This document shows positions 22,855-48,081 of a DNA stretch of 64,000 nt, piece by piece. The DNA lies in assembly GCA_963768855.1 (NCBI GenBank), contig CAVYJM010000006.1, positions 800,001 through 864,000 on the forward strand, given 5' to 3'. The translations under genes and the position numbers were made by a program. Origin of the DNA: an uncultured Thermoplasmata archaeon (GTDB lineage Archaea > Thermoplasmatota > Thermoplasmata > RBG-16-68-12). The notes beneath the pieces were generated by a model. That model was not told where the DNA came from. It made no database searches and saw only the letters and a list, made by a program, of their open reading frames with translations. Position 1 is the first letter of the stretch; each line of letters opens with the position of its first letter.

Positions 22855-23952
22855 ATGGCCACCGTGGAGAAGCTCGCGCGATCCATCGTCCGTGAAAGTC
22901 TGAGGCCCAGAGAGTACGAGCCCGTTATCATCAGCACCTTCCCGCACACGCTGGACCTCGCGGAGCACGTCGACCTCGAATGCCAGAAGGTCGGGGCGGA
23001 TCCGTTCATCGTCGTCGACACGGACCGGGTCTTCTACGGCCAGTTCAAGAACTACTCCGACGAGAACCTGAAGAAGGTCTCCGCGCACTGCATCGGGATC
23101 GCGGAGTACGCACGTTCGTATGTCTGGCTCGGCGGCCCGAGGGACCCCGGTCCCATGGCCCGGGTGCCGCGTGCGAAGTTCGCGGCGATGTTCGAGGGGG
23201 AGCAAGCTCACTACGACAAGAACCGGGTCACGAAACCCAAGAACGTCGTCGTGGCGGTGGGCATGGTCACGCGGGAACGGTCCCGGGTGTACGGCTTGAA
23301 CTTCCCGAAGTGGAAGGGCATGGTCGAGGACGCCATCGCGGTGAACTATGCGAGGCTCCAGGACGCGGGGACGCGCGCGGCGGCCCGCCTGGCCCGGCCG
23401 ACGGATGTGCGGATCACGGCGGAAAACGGGACGGACCTCCGCTTCCGGCTTGCCGGCGAAGCGCGGAAGCCGGACGTCGACGACGGGGTGATCAGCGACG
23501 AGGACATCGCCTCGGACAACACGGACGCCAGCCTTCCCGCGGGAGCCGTCTGGGTCGCGCCCGTGGAGGCGAGCGCCCAGGGCACCTTCGTGTGCGACGT
23601 CGGCGTGCCCCAGGTCGGCCGCGTGATCGAAGGCCTCTCCTGGACCTTCAAGGATGGCCACGCGATCGAGTTCACCGCAAAGCGGAACCTGGTGGCGGCC
23701 CAGACGAACTGGGAGGGGGCGACCGGAGACCGGGACATGTTCGGCGCGTTCGGCCTCGGGCTGAACCCTCGCGCGAAGCCGGGCTTCCTGCAGAACGCGG
23801 TCGTCGCAGGGGCCGCCACGATCGGCATCGGGGAGAACCGGGACGCCGGAGGGACGAACGCGTCGTCCTACGGGTTCGCGGGGACCCTCGTCTCAGGGAC
23901 CGTCGAGATCGGCGGCACGACCGTCATCGACCGCGGGAAGTGGGTCGCGTAG
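22855..23952 (+). CDS. Peptidase M29 (aminopeptidase T)-fold protein lacking metal ligands
   Basis: Fold motifs VRITAENGTDL, LPAGAVWVAP, FGLGLNP, IGIGEN..GGTN; ligand positions substituted. Confidence 0.75.
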   Translation: MATVEKLARSIVRESLRPREYEPVIISTFPHTLDLAEHVDLECQKVGADPFIVVDTDRVFYGQFKNYSDENLKKVSAHCIGIAEYARSYVWLGGPRDPGPMARVPRAKFAAMFEGEQAHYDKNRVTKPKNVVVAVGMVTRERSRVYGLNFPKWKGMVEDAIAVNYARLQDAGTRAAARLARPTDVRITAENGTDLRFRLAGEARKPDVDDGVISDEDIASDNTDASLPAGAVWVAPVEASAQGTFVCDVGVPQVGRVIEGLSWTFKDGHAIEFTAKRNLVAAQTNWEGATGDRDMFGAFGLGLNPRAKPGFLQNAVVAGAATIGIGENRDAGGTNASSYGFAGTLVSGTVEIGGTTVIDRGKWVA

Positions 23953-35089: not shown

Positions 35090-35292
35090 GTTTCGTTCTG
35101 CCTCCTTACGCCGGCCGAGCACGGCCGGGGAGTTAAGGGTTCTTTGACGCTCCTCGAACGGAGAATGACGCCGCGGAACGAGCGAGCGCCTCACGCTCCC
35201 CTTTGGTTCGCTGGCAGAATCGTTATTAGCTCATCCTGCCATGGCCGGGCAGTTCCCCCCAAACGGAACTCGTCTTAGGAGGAGAGGAGAGC

Positions 35293-36954
35293 ATGGCGAC
35301 CCCTGCGTCCGATGTGTCTCCCGAGCCTGCCCGTGCGCCGACACCGCCGCCGGCGCCCCGGCGTCGCCCGTGGAAGTTGATTGCGGTCATCGTGGTGGTG
35401 ATCGTAGCCCTATCCGCCATCGCGGTCTATGTGGTCCTGTACAGCCCCAAGCCCGCAAGTGTGGTGGTCTACGACACGAACTCGGAGATGGTCACGTTGG
35501 ACCCGAGTTCGGAGTTCTCGAACTCGATCCTGATCCTGCCGAACGTGTATGAGACGCTGACCCACTGGAATCCGGCAACGAATTCCGCGGATCCGCTTCT
35601 CGCTTTGAGCTGGAACCATGCCTCAGACGGCATGACGTGGAATTTCACGCTCCGTCAGGGCGTCACCTTCCACGATGGCACCCCGTTCAACGCGACCGCG
35701 GTGAAGTACTCCCTCCTGCGCACGATTGGCTTCGCGCAGGGGGCGGCCTACATCTGGAGCGCACTCGGCGACTTGACGCAGGCTGAACAGAACATCGAAC
35801 TGACGGGGACCTACGCAGTCGAGTTCCACCTGCTCTACCCCGCGGCGATGGACAAGATCGCCTCCTCCGGATACGGAGCGTACATCTTCTCACCGAACAC
35901 GCCGGGCGCGAACTACACGCTCCAGCAAGCCTGGTTCAATGCGGGGCATGACTCGGGATCGGGCCCGTACTCGATCAACACGGCCCAGTACACGAGCACG
36001 TACTCGGTCCTGGACAAGTACGCCAACTACTGGGGCGGCTGGCAGGCCGGTCAGTTTGACCACGCCATCATCAAGCGCGTCGCCGATGCCATCCAACGCG
36101 AAAAGGATGTGACGAGCGGGGCGGCTGACATTACCGAGGACGTGCCCCTGAGCGATCTTCCGACCCTCCAGAACAACTCGGCCGTGAGCGTCCTGGAGAC
36201 CCCGAGCTATCGCGCCCTCTACGCCTTCTTCAACATGCAGAAGGATCCGACAAGCAACCTGTCCTTCCGCTTGGCACTTGCGTACTCGCTTCCGTACGAT
36301 TACGTGGCCGGGACCGTCACCGAAGGCCTGGGAACACAGTCGGTCGGAGTGATCCCCGCCACGATGTGGGGGCATGACAGCACCCTGCCCCACTACAGCT
36401 TCAACATGGCCCAGGCCGCGCAGTACCTCGCCCAGTCCCCCCACCCGACGGGCCACGTCACGCTGACGTACACCTATGTGACCGGAGACCCGTACGAGCA
36501 GAAGATGGCCGAGGCCTGGAAGACGCAGCTCGCGACTCTGAACATCACGCTGAACCTTCAGCCCATGGAATGGACGGCGCAGTGGGCGCTGGCGCAGGGG
36601 CCCCCATCCGCGGCGCAGGACATCTTCGTGATGTACTGGTGGCCCACGTACGTGACCCCGTACGACTTCCTGTTCAACATGTTCAGCTACGCCAGCTACC
36701 AGGTCTACAACCTCGGCTACTACAACAACTCCGCGTTCGACGACTCGATCAACACAGCCTTCACGGAGGAAGCCACGAGTCCGTCGACGGCGCTGCAAGA
36801 CTACCGGACGGCTCAGCTGATGCTGTACACCGACCTGCCGGGGATGGGAGTCGTGGACCTGAAGAACCTCTACCTTGAACGGGCGAACCTGAAGGGCTTC
36901 ACGGACAATCCGGCGTATCCGCTGGTGGTCTTCTTCTACCAGCTGTCGCGCTAG
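35293..36954 (+). CDS. Family 5 (Dpp/Opp/Nik) ABC substrate-binding protein with N-terminal TM anchor
   Basis: LDPS, NVYETL, PLLALSW, FTLRQGVTFHDGTPFNA.AVKYS, GSGPY. Confidence 0.9.
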   Translation: MATPASDVSPEPARAPTPPPAPRRRPWKLIAVIVVVIVALSAIAVYVVLYSPKPASVVVYDTNSEMVTLDPSSEFSNSILILPNVYETLTHWNPATNSADPLLALSWNHASDGMTWNFTLRQGVTFHDGTPFNATAVKYSLLRTIGFAQGAAYIWSALGDLTQAEQNIELTGTYAVEFHLLYPAAMDKIASSGYGAYIFSPNTPGANYTLQQAWFNAGHDSGSGPYSINTAQYTSTYSVLDKYANYWGGWQAGQFDHAIIKRVADAIQREKDVTSGAADITEDVPLSDLPTLQNNSAVSVLETPSYRALYAFFNMQKDPTSNLSFRLALAYSLPYDYVAGTVTEGLGTQSVGVIPATMWGHDSTLPHYSFNMAQAAQYLAQSPHPTGHVTLTYTYVTGDPYEQKMAEAWKTQLATLNITLNLQPMEWTAQWALAQGPPSAAQDIFVMYWWPTYVTPYDFLFNMFSYASYQVYNLGYYNNSAFDDSINTAFTEEATSPSTALQDYRTAQLMLYTDLPGMGVVDLKNLYLERANLKGFTDNPAYPLVVFFYQLSR

Positions 36955-36958
36955 CGGC

Positions 36959-36976
36959 GCGGGCCTTCGGGCCCGC
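36959..36976 (+). promoter_or_regulatory. Seven-bp hairpin with cUUCGg tetraloop between SBP and permease genes
   Basis: gcgggcc-ttcg-ggcccgc, immediately followed by the AGGAGGAGG SD. Confidence 0.6.
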
Positions 36977-36989
36977 CAGGAGGAGGACG

Positions 36990-38063
36990 GTGGTCGAGGG
37001 GGCCCGGACGTCCGGCACCGCAGGGGGAGCGTTCCTCCGGTTCCTGATACGCCGAGCGATCCTCGCCCTCGTGGTGGTCCTCGGGGTCATCGTGATCACC
37101 TTCTTCCTGTCCCGAGTCGTGCCCGCGAACGTCGCAGGTCTTTGGGCCGGAGGCACGCATGCGACGGCCGCGGAGTTGGCCCAAGCCCGCACTGAACTCC
37201 ACCTCGATGACTCCCTTCCGGTCCAGTTCTGGTATTACCTCTCCGGGCTCGTACAAGGCAATCTGGGCACGGACCTGGTCACGAAGCACCCGGTCAGCCA
37301 AGATATCGCCGCCTACCTACCCGCAACGCTGGAGCTCATTTCATCCGCTATCCTCTTAGCCCTCCTCATTGGAATCCCTCTCGGGGTGTTTGCAGGGGTC
37401 AAGCGAGGCCGGTGGCCCGACCACCTGACCCGGTTCCTTGCCGTTGGGGGGGTGGCTCTTCCATCCTTCTGGTTCGCTATCGTGTTACAAGTGATCTTCG
37501 TTGAAGGACTCCACGTCCTTCCGTCGAGCGGTCGGTTCACCGACTCGCTGGCCATTACCTCGCCGATCCGGACCATTACCGGCTTCATGACGATCGATTC
37601 GTTGCTGCAGGCGAACCTGCCGCGCTTTGTCGATGCGATCGGGCACTTGATTCTGCCCTCGCTCACCCTCGCGCTGTATCCCATCGGGCTGGTTGCCCGG
37701 ATGGTCCGCACGATGATGGTCGAGGTGCTCGGCGAGAACTACATCCGGACGGCGAAGGCTTACGGCTTGCCGGCCCGCCTCATCCACTACCGCTACGCGT
37801 TGAAGAACGCGATTTCACCCGCCATCGTGGCCGTGGGCTTGTCGTTCGCCTACGAGCTGACGGGAGCCTTCCTCGTGGAGAACATTTTCTCGTGGAACGG
37901 GATTGGCCAGTATGCGTTCCTTGCCGTGGAGAACTTCGACTATCCCGCGGTCGTGGGTACTGCGATCGTGGTCGCAATCTTCTACGTCATCGTGAACTTG
38001 GTCGTCGACATGATCCAATCGTTCCTGGATCCACGAGTGGTCCTGACGAAGTCGGAGGGCTGA
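36990..38063 (+). CDS. Peptide/nickel ABC permease (DppB-like)
   Basis: FLIRR, LDDSLPVQF, PATLEL, ENYIRTAKAYGL (EAA loop), VENIFSWNGIG. Confidence 0.9.
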   Translation: MVEGARTSGTAGGAFLRFLIRRAILALVVVLGVIVITFFLSRVVPANVAGLWAGGTHATAAELAQARTELHLDDSLPVQFWYYLSGLVQGNLGTDLVTKHPVSQDIAAYLPATLELISSAILLALLIGIPLGVFAGVKRGRWPDHLTRFLAVGGVALPSFWFAIVLQVIFVEGLHVLPSSGRFTDSLAITSPIRTITGFMTIDSLLQANLPRFVDAIGHLILPSLTLALYPIGLVARMVRTMMVEVLGENYIRTAKAYGLPARLIHYRYALKNAISPAIVAVGLSFAYELTGAFLVENIFSWNGIGQYAFLAVENFDYPAVVGTAIVVAIFYVIVNLVVDMIQSFLDPRVVLTKSEG

Positions 38064-38066
38064 GCG

Positions 38067-39023
38067 ATGGCCGCGGAGTCGCCGCTTCATTCAGGTGCCG
38101 ACGCGTTCTCTCCGGCACTCCGTCGAACTGTCGACGCAGCCCTCGCGGGAATCCGCTCCCTGTGGCGGATTGTGAGGAGGGATCCGCTAGCGCTCGTCGG
38201 ACTGGCAATCCTGACGGTTTTCGTGGTGGCCTCACTTCTGGCCGGGTTCCTTCCCTCTCTGATACCTTACTCGGCGCAAGGGCAGGGCGCTGTGAACCTG
38301 AACTCCGCGGACAAGTTGCTTGCCCCAAGTGGGACGCACTGGCTCGGCACAGATGAAGCCGGCAGAGACCTCTTCGCACGACTCTGGTTCGGCGCGGGTC
38401 TCGCCCTTTGGGTGGGGCTCGCCACGGTCCTGATCTCCTTCCCCGTGGGAGTGCTCCTCGGCGTGGTCGCGGGCTATATGCGGGGCGCCGTCGAGGAGGT
38501 GATCATGCGGGTCACCGACATGTTCCTCGCGTTCCCGACGATTCTGCTCGCCATCGTCATCGCCGCGACCCTGAACCGCGGAACGACCGCGGAGATCATC
38601 GCGATGGCCGTCAGCTTCTGGCCCTGGTACACCCGCCTCGTGCATTCGCAGGTCCAACACGTGCGGTCCCAGCCATTCGTCGAATCCGCAGTGGTCCTCG
38701 GGCTCCCGCGCCGCCGGATCATCCTTCGCCATCTCCTCCCGAACTCACTGACGTCGGCCTCGATCCAGGCGACGATGGACATCGGGTCCGCCATCCTGAT
38801 TGCCGCCGCTCTGAGCTGGATTGGACTCGGTCCACAGCCCGGCGCGCCTGACTGGGGCGTCATGCTCCAGTCCGCTTACTCGGAGGGAAGCTTCATCACC
38901 TTCTGGTGGTACTCGACCTTTGTCGGGCTCGCCCTCTTTCTCGTTGTACTCGCGTTCAACCTTTTGGGCGACAGCTTCCGCGACGCGCTCGATCCCAAGC
39001 TCCGCAGGAGGCGCATGTTCTGA
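38067..39023 (+). CDS. Peptide/nickel ABC permease (DppC-like)
   Basis: HWLGTDEAGRD, MRVTDMFLAFP, PFVESA..LG, RHLLPN, FNLLGDSFRDALDP. Confidence 0.9.
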   Translation: MAAESPLHSGADAFSPALRRTVDAALAGIRSLWRIVRRDPLALVGLAILTVFVVASLLAGFLPSLIPYSAQGQGAVNLNSADKLLAPSGTHWLGTDEAGRDLFARLWFGAGLALWVGLATVLISFPVGVLLGVVAGYMRGAVEEVIMRVTDMFLAFPTILLAIVIAATLNRGTTAEIIAMAVSFWPWYTRLVHSQVQHVRSQPFVESAVVLGLPRRRIILRHLLPNSLTSASIQATMDIGSAILIAAALSWIGLGPQPGAPDWGVMLQSAYSEGSFITFWWYSTFVGLALFLVVLAFNLLGDSFRDALDPKLRRRRMF

Positions 39024-39994
39024 ACGCCCTGCTTGACGTGAAGGATCTCAGCTTGGATTTCGAGACGGAGATGGGAACCGCCAAGGTACTCGATCGCGTG
39101 ACCTTCTCCATCGGGGAAGGAGAGGTCTTCGGGCTCGTCGGCGAGACGGGCTGTGGCAAGACGGTCACCGCGCTCACGGTTCTACGACTTCTCCCGTCCA
39201 ATGCCCGGATCCGGACCGGCACGGTGAAGTTCCTGGGAGAGGAGTTGCTCTCCAAGACCGACGCCGAGATGGAGCAACTCCGCGGCTCGAAGATCTCCAT
39301 GGTGTTCCAGGATCCCGCGACGAGTCTCAACCCGGTGTTCAGCGTGGGCGAGCAGGTCACCCGGGTCGTAAGGATTCACGAGGACGTCGAGAAGGACGTC
39401 GCGGAGAAGCGGGCGCTCGGCCTGTTCAAGCGGGTGGGTCTTCCCGACCCTGAAAACGTCCTCCACAGTTACCCGCACGAACTCAGCGGCGGGATGCAGC
39501 AGCGCGTCATGATCTCGATGGCCCTTGCGTGCCGTCCGAAACTATTGATCGCAGATGAGCCGACCACCGCCGTGGACGTGACCATTCAAGCTCAGATCCT
39601 CGACTTGCTGCTCGAGCTTCAACGGGAGTTCCGGCTCTCGGTTCTCTTGATCACCCACAATCTGGGGATAGTCGCAGAGACCTGTCAACGGGTCGGCGTA
39701 ATGTACGCGGGGACGCTCGCGGAGGTCGCCGCGACGAAGGATCTGTTCCGTGAGCCTCTGCATCCATACACCCAGCGGCTCCTCAAGTCGCTCCCGCGGC
39801 CCGATGCCCGAGGCGAGCCCCTCGCCTCAATCCCGGGCACCGTGCCGAGCCTGATCAACCCTCCGTCCGGCTGCCGATACCACCCGCGTTGCGAGTTCGC
39901 GATGAAAAGCTGCTCCGTCCGGAGACCCGCGATCCTCGAGCACCGCCCGAACCATCGCGCTGCCTGTCTCCTGTATGAGGGGGTGAAGGAGTGA
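39020..39994 (+). CDS. Peptide ABC ATPase (DppD-like); probable CTG start
   Basis: [29 protein letters not shown]-terminal GCRYHPRC; AGGAGG lies 8 nt before CTG 39020. Confidence 0.88.
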
Positions 39995-40980
39995 GTCTCG
40001 TGCGCGTCGAAGGCCTTCAGAAGCTCTTCCCTGTGCGGATTGGTTTTGCGGGTCAGGCGCGGGTCCACGCCGTCGACGGGGTCGACCTCGAAATCGAGGA
40101 AGGCGAGACCTTCGGGCTCGTGGGCGAGAGCGGCTCCGGCAAGAGCACCCTGGGGCGCTGCATCCTGCGGCTCGTCAATCCGACCGCCGGACGCATCTGG
40201 TTCGAGGAGCTGGACCTGACCGCGCTGCGCGGAGAATCCCTGAGGAAGACACGCCTCCGGTTGCAGATTGTCTTCCAGAACCCGATGGCCTCCCTCGACC
40301 CGAGGATGCGGGTCGGACAGACGATCGCCGAACCGCTGCGCGTGCATCGTGGGGCGAGTCCCTCTGAGGCGCGGGTGAAGGTCGAGGAGCTCCTTCGTCG
40401 TGTGGGCCTACACTCCGAAGTCGCGGGTAAGTACCCGCACGAGCTGAGCGGGGGCCAGTGCCAGCGCATCGCGGTGGCGCGGGCTCTCGCGCTCGAACCG
40501 AAGTTCATCGTCCTCGACGAACCGACCTCCTCCCTCGATGTCTCCGTGCAAGCCCAGATCGTGAACCTCCTCAAGGAGTTGCAGCGGGACCTCGGGCTGA
40601 CCTACCTCTTCATCACGCATGATCTTGCCCTCGTGGGCTACCTCGCAGACCGCGTGGGTGTGATGTATCTTGGGAAGCTCGTCGAAGTCGGAGGAGCGGT
40701 CGACGTCCTGCAGCACGGGCAGCATCCGTACACCCTCGCCCTGCGGAACGCGGTCCCCCTGCCGGATCCTGAGCGGGAACGGAAGCACATCCCTCTGAAG
40801 GGCGAGATTCCGTCTGCGCTCGAGCCGCCCTCCGGTTGCCGTTTCCGCACCCGGTGTCCGTGGGCCCAGAAACGGTGCGCGGACGAGGAGCCGCCCCTCC
40901 GCGAGGTCGGCCCGACCCGCGTGGCGTGTCACTTCGTTGAAGAGATTCAGACGCAATTGGGGAAGGGGAGTGCGACATGA
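39991..40980 (+). CDS. Peptide ABC ATPase (DppF-like)
   Basis: [36 protein letters not shown]; GTGA overlap. Confidence 0.9.
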   Translation: MSLVRVEGLQKLFPVRIGFAGQARVHAVDGVDLEIEEGETFGLVGESGSGKSTLGRCILRLVNPTAGRIWFEELDLTALRGESLRKTRLRLQIVFQNPMASLDPRMRVGQTIAEPLRVHRGASPSEARVKVEELLRRVGLHSEVAGKYPHELSGGQCQRIAVARALALEPKFIVLDEPTSSLDVSVQAQIVNLLKELQRDLGLTYLFITHDLALVGYLADRVGVMYLGKLVEVGGAVDVLQHGQHPYTLALRNAVPLPDPERERKHIPLKGEIPSALEPPSGCRFRTRCPWAQKRCADEEPPLREVGPTRVACHFVEEIQTQLGKGSAT

Positions 40981-42086
40981 GGACTTTGGACTTGGAGAAC
41001 TTGCAGGACATCTTGGTGGGCGCGGCGTTCCTCGGAACGGGCGGCGGAGGATCGCTGGATAGGGGCATCCAGACCGTGTCGGCGGACCTGAAGGCGGGTC
41101 GCTCGATCCGTCTTGCCGACCCCGACGAACTGGCATCCGAGACCTGGGCGTGCACGCCCTACTACTGCGGGAGCCTCGCTCCGACCGGAAAGACCGCGTT
41201 CAAGACGAAGGACACTCCCTACGACGGGACAGAGTGCCTCCTCGCCGCGAAGGCCCTCGAGCGCCACCTGGGCGTCAGCTTCGGCACGACCGTGGCCACC
41301 GAGCTGGGCGGCGGCAACACCGCGGCCGCGCTCTCCGTCGCCGCGCAACTGGGCCTCCCGGCGCTCGACGCGGACGGAGCGGGACGATCCGTCCCGGACC
41401 TCCAGCACTCCACGTACTTCGTTGCCGGCATTCCGATCGCGCCGATGGGCGTGGCGAACAAGTACGGGGACGAGGTCGTCGTCCAGCATGTCGCGGACGA
41501 CTTCCACGCGGAGGCCCTCGTCCGGGCCATGGCGGTCGCCAGCGGCGGACACGTCGGCGTGGCGGACCATCCGGGACGCGTCGGGGATCTGCGGAAGGGG
41601 CTCGTCCTGCGGTCCATCTCGTTCTCGGAGAAGGTGGGCCACGCGATCCGCCGCAAGGGAGGCGACGCGATCGACGCGATCCTCGCGGCCACGGACGGGT
41701 ACCTCCTGTTCCGGGGCGTCGCCCCCTCGAACTGCAAGTACGAGGATAAGGAGGGCTTCACCTTCGGGACCATCGACGTCCGCGGGACGGACGAGGACCG
41801 CGGCGCGCGATATCGCATCTGGTTCAAGAACGAGAACATCATGGCATGGCGGAACGGAAAGGTGGACGTGACGGCCCCCGACCTCGTGTGCCTCCTGGAC
41901 CTGGATCGGCGCGAGCCGATCCTGAACCCCTGGGTGAAGAAGGGCCAGAGGATCGCCGCCTTTGGGCTGCCCGCGCCCGCGATCTGGCGCACCCCGCGCG
42001 GGGTGGAGGGCTTCGGCCCCGGCTACTTCGGCTACAAGACGAAGTTCGTTCCAATCGAGAAGAAGCACAGGAAAGGACGGCGGTGA
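40977..42086 (+). CDS. DUF917 family protein
   Basis: GAAFLGTGGGG, ELGGGN, DADGAGRSVPDLQ, FKNENI, APDLVCLLD; ATGA overlap. Confidence 0.85.
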   Translation: MRTLDLENLQDILVGAAFLGTGGGGSLDRGIQTVSADLKAGRSIRLADPDELASETWACTPYYCGSLAPTGKTAFKTKDTPYDGTECLLAAKALERHLGVSFGTTVATELGGGNTAAALSVAAQLGLPALDADGAGRSVPDLQHSTYFVAGIPIAPMGVANKYGDEVVVQHVADDFHAEALVRAMAVASGGHVGVADHPGRVGDLRKGLVLRSISFSEKVGHAIRRKGGDAIDAILAATDGYLLFRGVAPSNCKYEDKEGFTFGTIDVRGTDEDRGARYRIWFKNENIMAWRNGKVDVTAPDLVCLLDLDRREPILNPWVKKGQRIAAFGLPAPAIWRTPRGVEGFGPGYFGYKTKFVPIEKKHRKGRR

Positions 42087-43114
42087 AGATGACGGACATC
42101 CGGAGGGCCGCGACGGTCCTCGCGCGGGACATGCTGAAGGTCAAGAAGGGCGAGACGGTCATCGTCTACGGGGACCCCGCCACGGACCCGAGCGTCGTCC
42201 GGGCGACGGTCGACGCGGTCGAGGCCCGCGGCGGCGTGCCCCTCGAGGCGTGGTATCGGATCAAGGGTCCGCCCGGCACGGAGCCCCCCGCCCCGTTCGC
42301 GGAGGCGATGCGGAAGGCGGACGTCCTCGTGGAGTTCGCGCGAACCTACCTCATCACGACGCGAGCGTTCCAGCGTGCGATGGACGCCGGAGCGAGGGCG
42401 ATGTGCCTGACGGGCATGGACGCGGACATGATGGTCCGCTGCATCGGGAACGTCTCCCTGCCCGCCCTGAAGGCGTTCGGCGGGACGCTCCAGAAGATGA
42501 CCCAGCGCGCGAAGAAGGCCCACGTCACATCGCCCGGAGGGACGGACCTGTGTTTCGACCTCGGGAAGCGACCGATCATCCTCGACACGGGGGAGTGCGT
42601 TACGCCCGGGCGGGACTCCTACCTCGGCGGCCAGATTTCCTGGGCCGCGGTCGAGGGGTCGATCGAAGGCAGTCTCGTCCTCGACGGGACCGTCTGGCCT
42701 CCCGATCCGCTCGCTCCCCTGCGGGAGCCGATTCGGCTCGAGCTGGATCGCGGTCGGATCGCGTCGATAGGCGGGGGCGAGGCCGCGAAGATCCTGCGGG
42801 ACTGGATCGAGCACTTCCGCGACCGCAAGATGTACAACGTGGCCCACTTCTGCTTCGGGTTCAATCCGGGCGCGAGCATCTCTGGGAAGATCCTGGAGGA
42901 CGAGCGCGCGTTCGGTGTCTTCGTGACCGGGTTCGGTTCCCAGATGGCGTCCTTCAAGGGTGGGTTCACCCTCGCGAAGAGCCACATCGACGGGGTGACG
43001 AGACGCCCGACGATCACCTTCGACGGGGAGACGATTCAGCGCGATGGTGCGTTCGTGCACCCGAAACTCGTTCCTCTCGAAAAGCGCCTCCTGGCCGAAC
43101 GGCCACCTGACTGA
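42083..43114 (+). CDS. M29-fold protein with NicX-type His/His/Asp metal site
   Basis: VKKGETV, AHVTSPGGTDL, LRDWIEHFRD..MYNVAHFCFG.NP, EDERAFG, SHID; GTGA overlap (ATG 42089 alternative). Confidence 0.75.
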   Translation: MKMTDIRRAATVLARDMLKVKKGETVIVYGDPATDPSVVRATVDAVEARGGVPLEAWYRIKGPPGTEPPAPFAEAMRKADVLVEFARTYLITTRAFQRAMDAGARAMCLTGMDADMMVRCIGNVSLPALKAFGGTLQKMTQRAKKAHVTSPGGTDLCFDLGKRPIILDTGECVTPGRDSYLGGQISWAAVEGSIEGSLVLDGTVWPPDPLAPLREPIRLELDRGRIASIGGGEAAKILRDWIEHFRDRKMYNVAHFCFGFNPGASISGKILEDERAFGVFVTGFGSQMASFKGGFTLAKSHIDGVTRRPTITFDGETIQRDGAFVHPKLVPLEKRLLAERPPD

Positions 43115-43244
43115 GGGGCGCCGCAGGTCTAGAGTCGGTCGTGGTCTTCGCGCGCCGGCAACGGCCGACCTCAAAGATGGCCCCTGGGTAATGGCGTAAG
43201 TTATATCCCCGCGCATCCGGATGGGGAGGCATCCGAGGGGTGCT

Positions 43245-46079
43245 GTGAGCCTACTTCGGTACGCCGGCTCGGGAATCCTGCGAAACCGGAGGCGGACCTT
43301 CTCCTCCATCCTCGGCGTCCTCCTCGCGGTCACGTTCGTCGCGGGCACCTTCATCGCGATTGACTCCTCGACCCGGGCCACGCTAGACGCCTCGCTCCAG
43401 TCCATCCAGGGAGATTTCAGCTACTATGCCTATCCGCTCAGCACGGGACCACAGTACACCCCGGGTCAGAGCAATGGCACGGATCTCCGGGACGCCATGG
43501 CGGCCGTGCCCGGAGTCGAAGACGCGTCCGTCTATCGGCAAGTCAACAGCTACTCAGGAGGTCTGCTCCTCTCGAACCCGACGGACCCGGTGAACACAAC
43601 CGCGTACATCGGTTCGATGCTTGCGGTCGATCCCTACCATCTCCCGTACCAGCTGCGCCAGGCCACGGTCTCCGGGTCCACCCTGCTCCCGAACGGCACG
43701 CTCCTGCTGGACACCCAGACGGCGAACCAGATTCGGGCGAAGCTGGGCGACTCCTTGAACCTGACTTACCAACAGTGGAACGGGACGGGCGTGACGAACA
43801 TCTCGATGCTGTTCACGCTCGGCGGGATCGCCACCCTCTCGTCCACGTACGGATACGGCGGCCCCGTGTACGGACCGTACCCGCCGTACTATGGGAGCCT
43901 GGTTGCCTTCAACCTGCGGGACTTGGACTGGGTCGTCAACCGTCTGAATCTGACCAACGCCTACTCTTCCCAGATCCAGGGCGAGGTGTGGATCGACCGG
44001 GCCCGCTTCGTCGATCCGTATGATCTCTCCGCCACGACGTTCCGGCTGACCCGCCTCGATCGCCAACTGACCCAGGCCATGATCGCGGCTGGATACACAG
44101 GGAGCGTGAACGACAACATCTCCCCCGCGATCCAGACGTTCTCCTCCCTGATCCTGTTCCAGCGCATCGAGTATCTGCTCCTCTCGTTCCCTGTGATTCT
44201 CCTAGGTCTCTATCTGGGGGCCGTGGGCGTCGATCTCGGCCACGCGGAGCGCCGTCGGGAGCTCGGCGTCCTCAAGACGCGGGGCGCGAGCCGACGGCAG
44301 GTCGCCCTGCTTCTCATCCTCGAATCGCTCCTCGGCGGGTTCGTCGCGACGGTCCTCGGACTGCTTTTCGGCGTCGCCTTGAGCCGCGTCCTCATCGGCG
44401 TAGTCACCCCCTTCGGCGCCTCCGCGGCGTACGGCGTCGTGACCCTGACCCCGGACACGATCATCATCGTGGCCATCCTGAGCACGCTCTTCATGGGAAT
44501 CGTCAGCTATCGGTCGGCGAGGCGGACCGCGAGCCTGCCGATCATCGAGACCCTCCGCTACTACGCTCCGGGCGAGACCCGCATCCAGTACTCCCCGACC
44601 CTGGACATCCTCATGATTGGGTACAGCGTGTTCGTTTACATCCTGTACTTCTACATCACCTCCAACGCCTCGAACTTCTTCATCTTCATGATTGGGAGCC
44701 TGTTCCTCATCACCCTCCCGGTCACTCCCATCCTCCTGATCGTCGGGTCCGTACGTCTCATGACTCGGTCCACCGGGCGGGTGTACGAGTGGACGACCCG
44801 GCTCATCCGGCCGTTCGCGAAGAACCTCGAGTACGTGGTCAGCCGCAACCTCTCTCGGAATCCGCGGCGTTCCTCGAACATCGCGATCATCATCGCCCTT
44901 GGGCTGGCCTTCGGCGTCTTCATCATGTCTTCCCTGGGGTCACAGCAGGCGGTGCAACAGGCGAGCCTCCGCGCCAGCATCGGCGCCGACATGTCCGTGA
45001 GCATCCCGTTCACATCCAACGGATCCGCGGACCTGGGCTTCCCGTCCAACCTCAGCAAGGTGTCCGGTGTCGCGGCCATCGCGCACGTCCTCCCCCTGAA
45101 CGTGTTAGTCTCGCCAGGCGTCATGTACGGTTCCGCATCCGTCTTCTCGTTGGATCCGACCACCTACTTCTCCGTGGCGCAGCCGGCGCCCTACTTCTTC
45201 GAGGACCCTGCGAGTGAGGCGGGGGCGCAGGCCGTGCTCGCGACGCCGGGTCAGGTCCTGATCACGGGTCAGTTCGCCAGGGATGCAGCGCTCCAAGTCG
45301 GAGATTCGCTCTACCTGAGCGCGACGACGTATCCGAACGGCACGCCTCAGACCGTATCCCTCACGGCCACGATCGGCGGGATCGTCCGGTTCCTGCCCGG
45401 CACCTACAACGGCTTCTTCTACGGGTCCGCCACCGCGCCCGACGAGGTCTACGGGAGCAACCAGACCTTCGCGAAGCTCATCGCGGCGACCGAGGGCGCA
45501 GGCTTCTACTACTCGAGCTCGGACCGCTTCCTGGTCTCCCTCCAGCCGGGCGCCGACTGGAAGACCGTCAAAGCGGACGTGCTAGCGCTTGGTTCCGCAG
45601 ACGTCCTGGTGTACCAGGAGCAGCTCGACCAGATCAACAACAACGCGTTCACCGGATCCTTCCTCGGTTTCATCCGCATGGAGATCGCGTTCATCGTGGT
45701 CATCCTGACGGCGGGCCTGGGTCTCATCATCTACGCCGCAAGCCTGGAACGGACGGTCGAGTTCGCGGGCATTACCGCACGCGGCTCAAGCGGGTGGCAG
45801 ACCGCGGGTCTTCTGGTCGGCGAGGCCTTCGTCATCATGCTCCTCGGGGTCCTCATGGGGCTCGTCGTCGGTCTGATCACGGGATACCTCTCCGTCTCGA
45901 TTACCACGCCTAGTTTCACTGGGGCCGAACCCATCGTCCCGAACCTGTTCGTGTTCCCGTTGGAAGCCCTCCTCCTCGTCATCCTCGCCCCCGCGGCGAT
46001 GCTCGGGACCACAATCCTGGTCGCGTGGAGGATTGCGAAGATGAATGTCGCACGTGTGCTCAAGATGCGAGGCGGATGA
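43245..46079 (+). CDS. Large FtsX/MacB-type ABC permease (duplicated, about eight TM, large extracellular domains)
   Basis: RNRRRT..SILGV, ERRRELGVLKTRGAS, RNLSRNPRRS, ERTVEFAGITARG; many N-x-S/T sequons. Confidence 0.85.
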   Translation: MSLLRYAGSGILRNRRRTFSSILGVLLAVTFVAGTFIAIDSSTRATLDASLQSIQGDFSYYAYPLSTGPQYTPGQSNGTDLRDAMAAVPGVEDASVYRQVNSYSGGLLLSNPTDPVNTTAYIGSMLAVDPYHLPYQLRQATVSGSTLLPNGTLLLDTQTANQIRAKLGDSLNLTYQQWNGTGVTNISMLFTLGGIATLSSTYGYGGPVYGPYPPYYGSLVAFNLRDLDWVVNRLNLTNAYSSQIQGEVWIDRARFVDPYDLSATTFRLTRLDRQLTQAMIAAGYTGSVNDNISPAIQTFSSLILFQRIEYLLLSFPVILLGLYLGAVGVDLGHAERRRELGVLKTRGASRRQVALLLILESLLGGFVATVLGLLFGVALSRVLIGVVTPFGASAAYGVVTLTPDTIIIVAILSTLFMGIVSYRSARRTASLPIIETLRYYAPGETRIQYSPTLDILMIGYSVFVYILYFYITSNASNFFIFMIGSLFLITLPVTPILLIVGSVRLMTRSTGRVYEWTTRLIRPFAKNLEYVVSRNLSRNPRRSSNIAIIIALGLAFGVFIMSSLGSQQAVQQASLRASIGADMSVSIPFTSNGSADLGFPSNLSKVSGVAAIAHVLPLNVLVSPGVMYGSASVFSLDPTTYFSVAQPAPYFFEDPASEAGAQAVLATPGQVLITGQFARDAALQVGDSLYLSATTYPNGTPQTVSLTATIGGIVRFLPGTYNGFFYGSATAPDEVYGSNQTFAKLIAATEGAGFYYSSSDRFLVSLQPGADWKTVKADVLALGSADVLVYQEQLDQINNNAFTGSFLGFIRMEIAFIVVILTAGLGLIIYAASLERTVEFAGITARGSSGWQTAGLLVGEAFVIMLLGVLMGLVVGLITGYLSVSITTPSFTGAEPIVPNLFVFPLEALLLVILAPAAMLGTTILVAWRIAKMNVARVLKMRGG

Positions 46080-46080
46080 G

Positions 46081-46767
46081 ATGCCCGAAGTCGTGATGAA
46101 GGACTTGATGAAAGTGTACCGTACAGGGAAGTCGGAGGTCATCGCATTGCGCGGCCTCGATATGACCGTCGGCAACGGGGAACTCGTTGCGGTCCAGGGG
46201 CCGAGTGGATGCGGGAAGACCACCTTGCTCAACCTGGTCGGCGGCATCGATCGCCCGACGGCCGGTCGCGTCGAAGTCGACGGGACGAACGTCCCCGACC
46301 TGAGTGACGCGGACCTCGTGAAGTACCGGCGGAACCGGGTGGGCTTCGTGTTCCAGTTCTTCAACCTGGTGCCGACGTTGACCGCCGAGGAGAATATCCA
46401 GCTCCCGATGCGGCTTGCCGGCAAAGCCGCGAAGGATCGCGAGGCACGCACGCACGAACTGCTGAAGCTCATCGACTTGGAGAAGAGGGCAATCCATCGG
46501 CCTGACGAACTGAGCGGCGGCGAACAGCAGCGCATCGCCCTAGCCACGGCGCTCGCGAACGATCCCCCGCTCATCCTGGCGGATGAACCGACCGGCGAGC
46601 TGGACACGAAGACGGGCCATGAGATCCTCGAGCTCTTCGGGCGGCTGAACCAGGAATTCAAGAAGACGATCCTCGTGGTCACCCACGACCAGCGCGTCGC
46701 GAACATCGCCCATCGCGTGCTACAGATCGAGGACGGTAAAATCACCGGTGAGACCACCCGGTCCTGA
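46081..46767 (+). CDS. LolD/MacB-type ABC ATPase
   Basis: GPSGCGKTT, GFVFQFFNL, ELSGGEQQR, ADEPTGELD, VVTHD. Confidence 0.92.
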   Translation: MPEVVMKDLMKVYRTGKSEVIALRGLDMTVGNGELVAVQGPSGCGKTTLLNLVGGIDRPTAGRVEVDGTNVPDLSDADLVKYRRNRVGFVFQFFNLVPTLTAEENIQLPMRLAGKAAKDREARTHELLKLIDLEKRAIHRPDELSGGEQQRIALATALANDPPLILADEPTGELDTKTGHEILELFGRLNQEFKKTILVVTHDQRVANIAHRVLQIEDGKITGETTRS

Positions 46768-46878
46768 CGGCGACCTCGGAACTCGTCGCGCCGGAACCCG
46801 TCACTGGCTCCGAACGGTAACGACGTCGAATCCATCGCCTCGCTCCCCGTTGCCGGAGACGGAGGAAGGGGAGGACCC

Positions 46879-48081
46879 ATGCGTCGGGTCATGACGGTTG
46901 CAGCGGGCTTGCTGGTGGGGATTGTGATTGCCCTCGCGGCATTCCAAGGGGTGAGTGCGAAGTCGCCGAAAGCCTCGTGGACCGTGATGGTCTACCTGGA
47001 CGGTGACAATAACCTCGACCCGGACGCCCATGTCGACATGGGCGAGATGGCTGTGGTGGGCTCCACCTCGGCGGTCAACGTCGTCGTCCTGCTGGACGAG
47101 TTCGACGGCCCCGCGAACCTGCTCAAGGTGACCGCGGGAGGCAGCCAGCTCGTTTCCGGATTCCCGCTGAATGGCATCGAGGCGGACATGGGCGACGGGA
47201 ACACGCTGGCCGTCTTCGTCGACTTCGTCGTGGCCAAGTTCCCAGCGGATCACTATCTCCTGGACCTCTGGGACCATGGGGACGACTTCCGCGGGTTCGC
47301 GTGGGATGACCATCCGAACCTGGACAACTCCCCCGGCGACGACTTCATGACGCACACGGAGATCGTGAACGCCCTCTCGGGCCATCACCTCGACATCCTG
47401 GCGTTCGACGGGTGCGTGATGAGCAACCTCGAGGTGTCGTACGAGTATGCCGCCCGCGGACTCGCGATCGACTACCTCGTGGCCTCCGAGATCTACATCC
47501 CCAACCAGGGCTTCGCCTACGACGGGCTCCTCGCGCCGCTCATCGCGAAACCCTCTATGGACGCGCTCACGCTCTCGAAGACGATCGTGGACTCCTACCT
47601 GGCGTACTACGGCGACGGCGGCTGGCAGGTCGGGCTGTCCGTGCTCAAGATGTCCAGCGTTCCGGGCTTGGTGTCCGCGGTTGGCGACCTCACGAGCGCC
47701 CTCCAGGCGGACATGCCGGTCTACCGCGACTGCATCGGCGACGCCCGAGGCAAGGCGCATCTCGGGTGGTCCATGACGGGCTGGGAGTCTTTCGTCGACT
47801 TCCCGACTTGGGTCACGACCCTGGAGCGGTGTCTCGGTCCGAACGCGGACCTGGCCCCCTTGTTCGCTGGAGTGAACGCCCAGCTGGCCGCGACGCTCCT
47901 GTACGTGCGCAACGCACACGCGCTCGACGTGAAGGGAGCGGGCGGCATGGGCGTCTTCTTCCCCGGTTCCGCCGGCTCGTTCGAGAACAACGCCTTCTGG
48001 CACGGGGAGTACTTCCTGGCGACCCAGTTCGCGTCCCAGGGATGGTACGACTTCCTCTGCGCCTACTGGGGCACCACATAG
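46879..48081 (+). CDS. Secreted clostripain-family (C11) cysteine peptidase
   Basis: Signal peptide; WTVMVYLDGDNNL; catalytic His in LWDHG and Cys in FDGCVM; VASE. Confidence 0.88.
   Translation: MRRVMTVAAGLLVGIVIALAAFQGVSAKSPKASWTVMVYLDGDNNLDPDAHVDMGEMAVVGSTSAVNVVVLLDEFDGPANLLKVTAGGSQLVSGFPLNGIEADMGDGNTLAVFVDFVVAKFPADHYLLDLWDHGDDFRGFAWDDHPNLDNSPGDDFMTHTEIVNALSGHHLDILAFDGCVMSNLEVSYEYAARGLAIDYLVASEIYIPNQGFAYDGLLAPLIAKPSMDALTLSKTIVDSYLAYYGDGGWQVGLSVLKMSSVPGLVSAVGDLTSALQADMPVYRDCIGDARGKAHLGWSMTGWESFVDFPTWVTTLERCLGPNADLAPLFAGVNAQLAATLLYVRNAHALDVKGAGGMGVFFPGSAGSFENNAFWHGEYFLATQFASQGWYDFLCAYWGTT

Follow-up and report, generated by a model that had tools for sequence, protein, structure and literature searches.

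The stretch of DNA analysed here (64,000 nucleotides, called the window below) comes from an uncultured Thermoplasmata archaeon and carries seven genes that lie on one strand, with every intergenic gap at or below 35 nt, and that form one co-directional operon (Table 1). Pfam and PDB matches gave the same gene content as the original prediction, made from the sequence alone: a substrate-binding protein (SBP), two permeases, two ATPases, a DUF917 protein, and an M29-fold protein. The importer is a Dpp/Opp-class set by Pfam, with SBP_bac_5, two BPD_transp_1 permeases (OppC_N), and two oligo_HPY ATPases, and its genes adjoin those of two cytoplasmic enzymes. The N-terminus of the SBP consists of RRR followed by a hydrophobic membrane anchor, and its best PDB match is 5u4o (E 3e-35), DppA being matched at about 1e-25.

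Table 1. Genes and upstream elements of the operon, with positions in the window.
Feature	Position	Strand	Evidence or remark
TTATTA, possible archaeal TATA box	35223..35228	+	about 65 nt 5' of the SBP start; putative, from sequence
Purine-rich AGGAGGAG upstream of the SBP gene	35277-35284	+	read from sequence
Family-5 (Dpp/Opp/Nik class) SBP, 553 aa	35293..36954	+	PF00496, 219 bits
ABC permease, DppB/OppB type	36990..38063	+	PF00528 + PF19300
ABC permease, DppC/OppC type	38067..39023	+	PF00528 + PF12911 OppC_N
ABC ATPase, DppD/OppD type, start uncertain	39020..39994 (or from 39038)	+	PF00005 + PF08352 (oligo_HPY)
ABC ATPase, DppF/OppF type	39991..40980	+	PF00005 + PF08352 (oligo_HPY)
DUF917 / S-Me-THD-like protein, 369 aa	40977..42086	+	PF06032 135 bits + PF20906 175 bits
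NicX-like M29-fold "H-type" protein, 341 aa (343 aa from GTG 42083)	42089..43114	+	

The last five genes had been described as joined by NTGA stop/start overlaps, and the four tetramers are indeed all present (39020, 39991, 40977, and 42083). Two of them, GTGA at the ATPase/ATPase junction (39991) and ATGA at the ATPase/DUF917 junction (40977), are canonical start/stop overlaps, but the other two are open to a different reading. At the permease/ATPase junction (39020), the tetramer is CTGA; CTG is a non-standard start codon, and orthologues show GTGA or ATGA at this place, so the DppD-type ATPase may start at GTG 39038. For the NicX-like gene, GTGA 42083 is one of two possible starts, the ATG at 42089, 3 bases past the DUF917 stop, being equally consistent with the 341-aa homologues. 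A bacterial promoter and terminator scan, whose model is unsuited to an archaeal host, gave counts at chance level. Searching sequencing runs for the operon returned DNA-only matches, from freshwater-sediment and wetland metagenomes and at partial word share, with no RNA run among them.

The two enzymes of the operon

Both domains of the DUF917 protein are present and score far above the Pfam gathering cut-off of 27. The protein matches PDB 2o3i in sequence (E 7e-16) and in structure (Z 39), and its AF2 model has a pLDDT of 92.6. In a wide fold search, 2o3i was the only match and no resemblance to classical hydantoinases was seen; the next-ranked folds (T4SS VirB10, CbiG/CobE, and SSB OB-folds) had Z below 5 and were uninformative. 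The sole enzyme names that NCBIfam offers for the family are those of (S-methyl)thiohydantoin desulfurases, whose reaction is hydrolytic. Our protein reaches 69.8 and 66 bits with the two desulfurase models NF058532 and NF058529, for which the cut-offs are 450 and 440, and the desulfurisation originally attributed to it is thus not borne out. A paralogous DUF917 locus in the host genome has hydantoinase/oxoprolinase genes alongside, in keeping with the link to such genes stated in the original prediction (paralogue loci, in low-GC islands of this genome, were placed by tblastn coordinates). A literature search on DUF917/PF06032, thiohydantoin desulfurase, DUF1177, and diketopiperazine hydrolase genes found, in the literature covered, no biochemistry beyond the paper on cyclodipeptide-oxidase (CDO) clusters that is discussed below. 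The predicted complex of the DUF917 and NicX-like proteins had a score of 0.00, which speaks neither for nor against an interaction.

The terminal protein matches the NicX structure 7cn3 by sequence (E 1.5e-16), and NicX is also the top structural match (TM 0.75) of its AF2 model (pLDDT 95), the M29 peptidases PepS, AmpT, and AmpS being matched by Foldseek at TM 0.62-0.68 (E 1e-16 to 6e-14). Neither Pfam (in a set without PF26233) nor NCBIfam assigned it to a family, and PF02073 was not matched even at E 10; the precomputed PF26233 "NicX" annotation is found on relatives that are 96% identical and on the L001 orthologue. Its candidate metal ligands, His253, His299, and Asp301, are invariant in 42 homologues and align with His265, His318, and Asp320 of NicX. 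In NicX, Ser302 is an essential fourth iron ligand, and Glu177 and His189 bind the substrate (PMC7910607); the corresponding columns hold Gly281 (with Thr280 adjacent), Asp166, and Ser177 in our protein, and the latter two columns are Glu and His in the true NicX of Cupriavidus. As for M29 peptidases, the catalytic and metal residues are E-E-H-Y-H-D (PMC7023490): the first three columns are occupied here by Gln182, His253, and Val279, there is no Tyr, and His299 and Asp301 are retained. The description of a NicX-like M29-fold protein stands for the fold and for the His/His/Asp site replacing the peptidase residues, but not for Ser302, Glu177, and His189, which are absent.

The terminal protein is a member of a large M29-derived family, the H-type family, and not a NicX orthologue. 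In the tree, it is nested in the Opp-linked H-type family with 98% support, true NicX lying outside on a branch of length 2.5, and its identity is 27.5% to true NicX versus 38-41% to H-type members from anaerobes. The H-type invariants Glu270, Asp271, Glu272, Arg273, His299, and Asp301 are all retained; in true NicX, the columns of Glu270 and Glu272 hold Met and Ala. Position 279 is Val in our protein, Glu in the wider H-type family, His in M29 peptidases, and Leu in true NicX; the tree makes this loss of Glu279 independent of true NicX, and Val279 is also seen in Tepidimicrobium, a family member from an anaerobe lineage. Since both Glu279 and His177, present in most of the H-type family, have been lost, the Thermoplasmata enzyme may act differently from its relatives. 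In many relatives, the H-type protein is accompanied by a paralogue in which all but one of the six M29 catalytic residues are preserved (E, E, H, H, D). We had considered Glu272 as a hydrolytic base in common with M29, an idea set aside because the M29 literature consulted gives only the EEHYHD residues (PMC7023490).

Recurrence of the module and its hosts

The same seven genes occur in the same order at six other Thermoplasmata loci (L001, L007, L009, L010, L011, and L013), and four short contigs (L005, L006, L008, and L012) hold the 3' part of the set; this recurrence is far above chance. The flanks differ in more distant relatives, and the close orthologue is scattered in its distribution, being present in 4 of the 13 genomes from the host genus and, in a genus belonging to another family, in 2 of 17. 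Outside the clade, 35 NicX-like-anchored loci of at least 12 kb include 26 with an Opp-type ABC transporter, 6 with DUF917, and 9 with a CDO-like nitroreductase, and the frequent neighbours of H-type genes are DUF917, Asp/Glu racemases, and cyclodipeptide-oxidase homologues. With DUF917 as single query, the locus search reached only nine loci. Among 6 long DUF917-anchored loci, an ABC transporter and a NicX-like gene were present together in 4. Three DUF917 homologues at 45-53% identity, including that of Desulforamulus reducens MI-1, all lie in importer clusters composed of PucR, SBP_bac_5, two permeases, two ATPases, the NicX-like gene, and DUF917. Related clusters carry PucR or IclR regulators, racemases, and flavin oxidases, and at the related loci L003, L087, and L088, the module is accompanied by the CDO pair.

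The importer and DUF917 are tightly coupled: among loci with an SBP at or above 35% identity to ours, 17 of 17 contain this DUF917 subtype, versus 0 of 25 when the SBP is at or below 29%. Given this strict pairing of subtypes, DUF917 should act on the same compound that the SBP binds. The pairing of genes is conserved across phyla, in bacteria as well as archaea, and the combination of DUF917 with an H-type M29 protein, which the original prediction had singled out, does recur in neighbourhoods of both domains. The idea of a new archaeal system is not supported, as the module is also bacterial and shares content with non-CDPS cyclodipeptide-oxidase clusters, which were described in 2024.

The hosts of the H-type family belong mostly to anaerobe-typical lineages, such as Atribacterota, Bathyarchaeia, Thermotogota, and Desulforamulus reducens. 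Two Thermoplasmata genomes, G040 (one contig, 98% complete) and G018 (96%), have the same module at 76% identity with the same Val279 and Ser177, and haem-copper (COX1) and cytochrome bd oxidases, when sought in them, were not found. Both oxidases were found in the host genome of the operon, so oxygen chemistry is possible in this organism.

Possible function and alternatives

The operon is a reduced version of a widespread breakdown module and not a new O2-dependent heterocycle pathway, and the imported substrate is likely peptide-derived. Our preferred but tentative reading, to which we give slightly less than an even chance, is that of a minimal form of an importer-plus-two-enzyme module through which a cyclic amide or ureide is imported and then cleaved without O2. 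The membrane-anchored family-5 SBP and the Dpp/Opp-type ABC transporter would take up a small compound of peptide origin that lacks ordinary free termini; a cyclic dipeptide (2,5-diketopiperazine), a hydantoin-like ring, or another cyclic amide or ureide would be the most plausible ligand. DUF917 would act first, water attacking the ring carbonyl or the (thio)ureide carbon, and the M29-derived metalloenzyme would then cleave the product. The second step is expected to be O2-independent because most of the H-type family lives in anaerobes; as the Thermoplasmata site is reduced to His253/His299/Asp301, its metal and exact reaction may differ from those of the family. One has to keep in mind that the substrate class is read from gene context only, there being no known activity in the DUF917 subtype or in the H-type M29 family. 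Counting against a cyclic amide, the operon has neither the CDO pair nor the racemases that are the pointers to cyclic dipeptides or hydantoins elsewhere, and the DUF917 fold is unlike that of classical hydantoinases.

Feeding on linear di- or oligopeptides, perhaps with D-amino acids or blocked termini, would make the M29-fold protein an aminopeptidase or dipeptidase and DUF917 an accessory amidase. We regard this as less likely. In its favour, all transporter components are of the Dpp/Opp class, the terminal enzyme has the M29 fold, its paralogous partner in many relatives keeps most of the M29 catalytic residues, and the host genome has at least eight SBP_bac_5 loci, some of them adjoining other M29-like genes. 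DppA holds the peptide termini through Asp408 (alpha-amino group) and Arg355 (carboxylate), and the presence of Thr and Asp in these columns of our SBP argues against free termini; this argument is weak, because more distant orthologous SBPs (L086, L065, L022, and L056) keep the Asp at the Asp408 position and because the alignments are at only about 25% identity. Also against peptide feeding, the terminal protein retains only the His and Asp of EEHYHD (Q182, H253, V279, H299, D301), the operon is without the M29-type partner, and the strict coupling of DUF917 to the SBP subtype would be left unexplained.

The scheme of the original prediction now appears improbable. In it, DUF917 would desulfurise or hydrolyse an imported N/S-heterocycle (thio-imidazole, thiolated base, or hydroxypyridine), which a NicX-type Fe(II) dioxygenase would then open oxidatively. 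The scheme draws on the alignment of the His/His/Asp ligands with those of NicX, on NicX as best structural match, on Val in place of the Glu279 of the anaerobe family where true NicX has Leu, on the oxidases of the host, and on the desulfurase names of the DUF917 family. On the other side, the protein falls within the H-type family by tree and by identity, its Glu279 loss is independent and shared with Tepidimicrobium, Gly, Asp, and Ser stand at Ser302, Glu177, and His189, nicC/D/F-type genes are absent nearby, DUF917 is far under the desulfurase cut-offs, and oxidative ring opening fits poorly with a family mostly found in anaerobe-typical lineages and with an identical module in G040 and G018, where COX1 and cytochrome bd were not found. 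A related proposal, in which the bare 2-His-1-Asp site that the Thermoplasmata branch acquired through its independent loss of Glu279 and His177 is a second, independent mononuclear Fe(II) ring-cleaving or redox enzyme built on the M29 scaffold and acting on the DUF917 product, has a similarly slim chance; if true, this enzyme would be an evolutionary intermediate from hydrolase to NicX dioxygenases. Nickel, staphylopine, haem, and AI-2 are also among the ligands of family-5 SBPs, and the least probable reading is a non-catabolic module importing a metal chelate, an opine-like compound, or a signal that the two enzymes release or modify, for which the top NCBIfam models of the SBP (nickel/NikA-type, 99 bits, far under their cut-offs) and the presence of NikA, the haem/AI-2 binder HbpA, and AgaA among its PDB matches can be cited, but these scores are all low and family-generic, metal-homeostasis genes are absent nearby, and the PucR/IclR regulators, racemases, and flavin oxidases of related clusters point to carbon/nitrogen catabolism.

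The module is among the more widespread importer-plus-orphan-enzyme sets of subsurface and thermophilic archaea and bacteria. To our knowledge, no catabolic genes have been assigned for cyclic dipeptides, and our literature search found none; should the substrate be a cyclic dipeptide or a related ring, as in our preferred reading, the module would supply these missing genes. The Thermoplasmata version, having only two enzymes, is the simplest form for reconstitution. As for the H-type family, it brackets the origin of NicX dioxygenases from M29 peptidases.

Comparison with known systems

The non-CDPS cyclodipeptide-oxidase clusters, a type to which Andreas & Giessen drew attention (Nat Commun 2024; PMC11055893; bioRxiv 10.1101/2023.09.25.559410), show enrichment for DUF917, AroM, racemases, peptide ABC transporters, and peptidases; that paper did not single out the NicX-like family. 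Our module resembles them in bringing together a Dpp/Opp-type ABC transporter, DUF917, and peptidase-like genes in many bacterial and archaeal phyla, whereas the operon has just one M29-like gene and is without the nitroreductase/DUF6092 (CDOA/CDOB) pair, racemase, AroM, and DUF1177. A search of the whole genome did not find DUF6092, and nitroreductase homologues were found only on contigs C10 and C18.

The terminal protein shares with NicX/Hpo, the 2,5-dihydroxypyridine 5,6-dioxygenase (7cn3), the M29-derived fold, the His/His/Asp metal site, and a hydrophobic residue where M29 peptidases have His348. It differs from it by its separate deep branch and low identity, by the absence of the Ser302 and Glu177/His189 residues, by a Glu-Asp-Glu motif that NicX does not have, and by a context of ABC importer and DUF917 instead of nicC/D/E/F as in the Cupriavidus nic locus; moreover, the module also occurs in genomes where a terminal oxidase was not found. 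With the M29 peptidases (AmpS, AmpT, PepS), it has the overall fold in common, but four of the six EEHYHD residues are replaced, PF02073 is not matched, and the length is about 340 aa versus about 410 aa; an HxD motif and a Glu-Asp-Glu-Arg/Lys segment are common to the terminal protein and the M29-type paralogues of related clusters.

The DUF917 protein has the two-domain architecture (PF06032 + PF20906) of the (S-methyl)thiohydantoin desulfurase of ergothioneine catabolism, but it falls short of the desulfurase models (70/66 bits vs. 450/440), and the genes for ergothionase, thiourocanate hydratase, and hydantoin-propionate hydrolase are absent nearby. Compared to hyu operons, ours has a peptide-class ABC transporter instead of an NCS1 permease, no amidohydrolase-type or HyuA/B hydantoinase, and no M20/CN-hydrolase carbamoylase; what they would have in common is the overall logic, in which uptake by a transporter is followed by ring opening and by a second enzyme, a metalloenzyme that cleaves an amide. 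Clusters related to ours add hydantoin-racemase-family genes.

Operon structure and boundaries

Six of the seven genes of the operon (35293-43114), carried in a 66% GC window of a 2.87 Mb MAG from an uncultured Thermoplasmata archaeon (93.6% complete, 7.7% contamination), were confirmed by Pfam; the seventh gave no family match in Pfam or NCBIfam profile searches, and its relatives are annotated with PF26233 "NicX", a more recent Pfam family. The last five genes had been predicted to be joined by stop/start overlaps, and two of these junctions, GTGA at 39991 and ATGA at 40977, are canonical. The last gene could start with GTG at 42083, but ATG 42089 agrees with the 341-aa homologues, and at 39020 the window reads CTGA. 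In six orthologous loci the first ATPase gene starts at this place (window 39015-39040) with a GTG or ATG that overlaps the stop codon of the permease gene (GTGA/ATGA); the CTG reflects either an assembly error or a substituted start codon, and in the latter case GTG 39038 may be where translation begins.

A TTATTA at 35223, 5' of the operon, and a 106-nt gap before the next gene (43221), which holds a second TATA-like element, probably bound the unit. The upstream neighbours (PrpD, ComA-like and reductase genes) and the downstream ones (FtsX permease, ABC ATPase, C11 peptidase) belong to separate, unrelated operons; the TATA-like element stands immediately 5' of the FtsX-type permease unit and is its own.

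Features of the operon and other genes in the window
Feature	Position	Strand	Basis or remark
Family-5 SBP (substrate-binding protein)	35293-36954	+	Pfam; N-terminal RRR-plus-hydrophobic anchor
Two Dpp/Opp-type permeases	between SBP and ATPase genes		Pfam
Two ATPases	between permeases and DUF917		Pfam; each with oligo_HPY tail
DUF917/S-Me-THD-like protein	40977-42086	+	Pfam; two-domain
NicX-like protein	42089-43114	+	match to solved NicX (7cn3), E 1.5e-16
Downstream unit	43221-48081		
FtsX-type permease			952 aa; in downstream unit
ABC ATPase	46045-46767		in downstream unit
Clostripain-family C11 peptidase	46879-48081		in downstream unit
M29 homologue	22855-23952	+	PF02073, 51.7 bits; predicted to lack metal ligands

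The terminal enzyme and its family

The AF2 model of the terminal protein (pLDDT 95) has NicX as its best fold match (TM 0.75), followed by the M29 aminopeptidases PepS, AmpT and AmpS (TM 0.62-0.68) and the crocagin proteins CgnB/E. We built a table of active-site residues for 96 sequences, numbered as in the operon protein unless NicX is named, which yields three classes: an M29-type class (Glu182, Glu253, His279, His299, Asp301); the majority of the M29-derived family that holds the operon protein, hereafter H-type (Gln182, His253, Glu279, His299, Asp301, plus His177); and a Thermoplasmata clade (His253, Val279, Thr280, His299, Asp301, with Ser/Cys177 and Asp166). True NicX from the Cupriavidus nic locus differs, reading His, Leu, Ser302, His, Asp, plus Glu177 and His189, and it lacks Glu270 and Glu272, both kept by every other member, the operon protein included. 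In the tree, the H-type family (79 rows, 98% support) contains the Thermoplasmata clade (10 rows, 100% support, stem 0.87) as an inner branch and excludes true NicX, whose own branch has a length of 2.5; Glu279 must have been lost through three independent changes. The operon protein is 27.5% identical to true NicX versus 38-41% to H-type members. The original prediction thus read the ligand pattern correctly, but by residue classes, tree placement and identity this is no orthologue of NicX.

The host genome also encodes an M29/NicX-like paralogue (26% identical; Ile182, His253, Asn279, His299, Asp301) at L092 (contig C6, 1059000-1075000), in a 59% GC stretch; it adjoins a further Opp-type ABC system, with a DUF917 paralogue about 20 kb off.

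Conservation and gene context

The seven genes occur in identical order in other Thermoplasmata loci, with protein identities of 60-92%; the set is complete in L001, L007, L009, L010, L011 and L013, and interrupted by contig ends in L005, L006, L008 and L012. The downstream flank is common only to the host and its two closest relatives, and L001 is flanked by a Dyp-like gene and an MFS transporter. A search of 301 genomes of the class detected the close orthologue in 4 of the 13 that belong to the host genus and in 2 of the 17 from a genus of a different family. From this fixed gene order, the differing flanks and the patchy presence, it follows that the module is accessory and forms a cohesive unit. 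At 0.80-0.90 its GC3 is not depressed, in contrast to the low-GC islands that carry paralogues (about 0.65).

Relatives of the terminal enzyme at 33-45% identity are encoded by 70 loci of species-representative genomes, nearly all of them from strictly anaerobic or fermentative lineages (Atribacterota, Bathyarchaeia, Thermotogota, Bipolaricaulota, Caldisericota, Desulfurococcales, Syntrophobacterales and Coprothermobacterota). Outside the Thermoplasmata clade, in the 35 NicX-like-anchored loci that span 12 kb or more, we found an Opp-type ABC system (26/35), a nitroreductase (9/35), often with DUF6092 following it to form the AlbA/AlbB cyclodipeptide-oxidase (CDO) pair, DUF917 (6/35) and Asp/Glu racemases (4/35); many carry paired M29-type and H-type genes. 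The three DUF917 homologues examined at 45-53% identity, one from Desulforamulus reducens MI-1 (L086) and two from metagenomic Firmicutes, lie in clusters combining PucR, SBP_bac_5, two permeases, two ATPases, a NicX-like gene and DUF917, with racemases and a fused CDO in two of the three; the DUF917-anchored loci L084 and L085 are without the partner genes.

Where the SBP shares 35% or more identity with that of the operon, the same DUF917 subtype is present in 17/17 loci (six retrieved via DUF917 itself; 11/11 in the NicX-anchored subset); it is present in 0/25 loci with an SBP of at most 29% identity, two of which carry another DUF917 subtype. This co-variation suggests that DUF917 acts on the compound bound by the SBP.

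On a plasmid of Streptomyces sp. NBC_00184, an H-type homologue (L079, 8941-10005, 40% identity) adjoins an IclR regulator and an OPT/YSL transporter replacing the ABC system, then an alpha/beta hydrolase and a CbiZ-like amidohydrolase. Asp/Glu-racemase-superfamily genes lie near true NicX (L080, Cupriavidus; maleate isomerase NicE) and in the orphan H-type clusters L087, L088 and L003, which may hint that the nic genes were recruited from the supercluster to which these clusters belong.

Substrate and chemistry

Operon, conservation, enzyme families, residue states and distribution are established observations. We tentatively favour, at somewhat under even odds, a pathway in which a small peptide-derived ring compound (cyclic dipeptide or hydantoin-like ureide) would be imported, attacked hydrolytically by DUF917, and the product cleaved without O2 by the M29-derived metalloenzyme. 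The operon DUF917 scores 70 and 66 bits on (S-methyl)thiohydantoin desulfurase models (cut-offs 450 and 440), and its sole structural relative is the uncharacterised 2o3i. Three more DUF917 paralogues are encoded in the host genome. The locus of one, L089 (contig C8, 56000-72000), is a 57% GC island within a 63% GC contig, with Opp-type permease and ATPase genes, an oppositely oriented gene for a 944-aa SBP_bac_5 protein that bears PKD domains, an amidohydrolase, an ornithine cyclodeaminase and a hydantoinase/oxoprolinase A subunit; the anticipated association of DUF917 with hydantoinase/oxoprolinase genes is thus borne out there.

Feeding on linear peptides, plain or unusual, through the Dpp/Opp-type importer and M29-fold enzyme is unlikely, with perhaps one chance in four. 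Aligned to E. coli and Yersinia DppA, the SBP has Thr and Asp at the peptide-terminus-binding Asp408 and Arg355, positions whose identity is confirmed by the swapped-residue entry 8z1z; the Thr at the Asp408 site is kept in the Thermoplasmata and Bathyarchaeia group, and is Asp in more distant orthologues. These residues are faintly suggestive of a ligand without ordinary peptide termini.

Oxidative opening of a heterocycle, as originally predicted, would suit the NicX-like ligand pattern and a host with a haem-copper oxidase (529 bits) and cytochrome bd. The same module is carried by two genomes of the host's class in family f10, G040 (98% complete, in a single contig) and G018 (96% complete); their NicX-like protein is 76% identical to that of the operon and retains Val279 and Ser177. 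A search for COX1 and cytochrome bd found neither in these two genomes, whereas both are present in the host genus. Within one class, the module thus occurs in hosts in which terminal oxidases were detected and in hosts in which they were not, and this, with the distribution of the family in anaerobe-typical lineages, makes an obligatory O2-dependent step unlikely and the oxidative model improbable. Import of a cargo for non-catabolic ends is, by a shade, the least probable of these four readings, and a share of the probability is assigned to none of them.

Among known systems, non-CDPS CDO clusters are reported to be enriched in DUF917 and AroM, in homologues of hydantoin racemase, and in peptide ABC/OPT transporters and peptidases, and have no known function (Andreas & Giessen, PMC11055893). 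The operon is a stripped-down archaeal variant of this known, unsolved cluster type, to which it adds the occurrence of the module in relatives whose genomes yielded no terminal oxidase in the search, a site reduced independently to a NicX-like triad, the coupling of SBP subtype to DUF917 subtype, and a two-enzyme minimal form.
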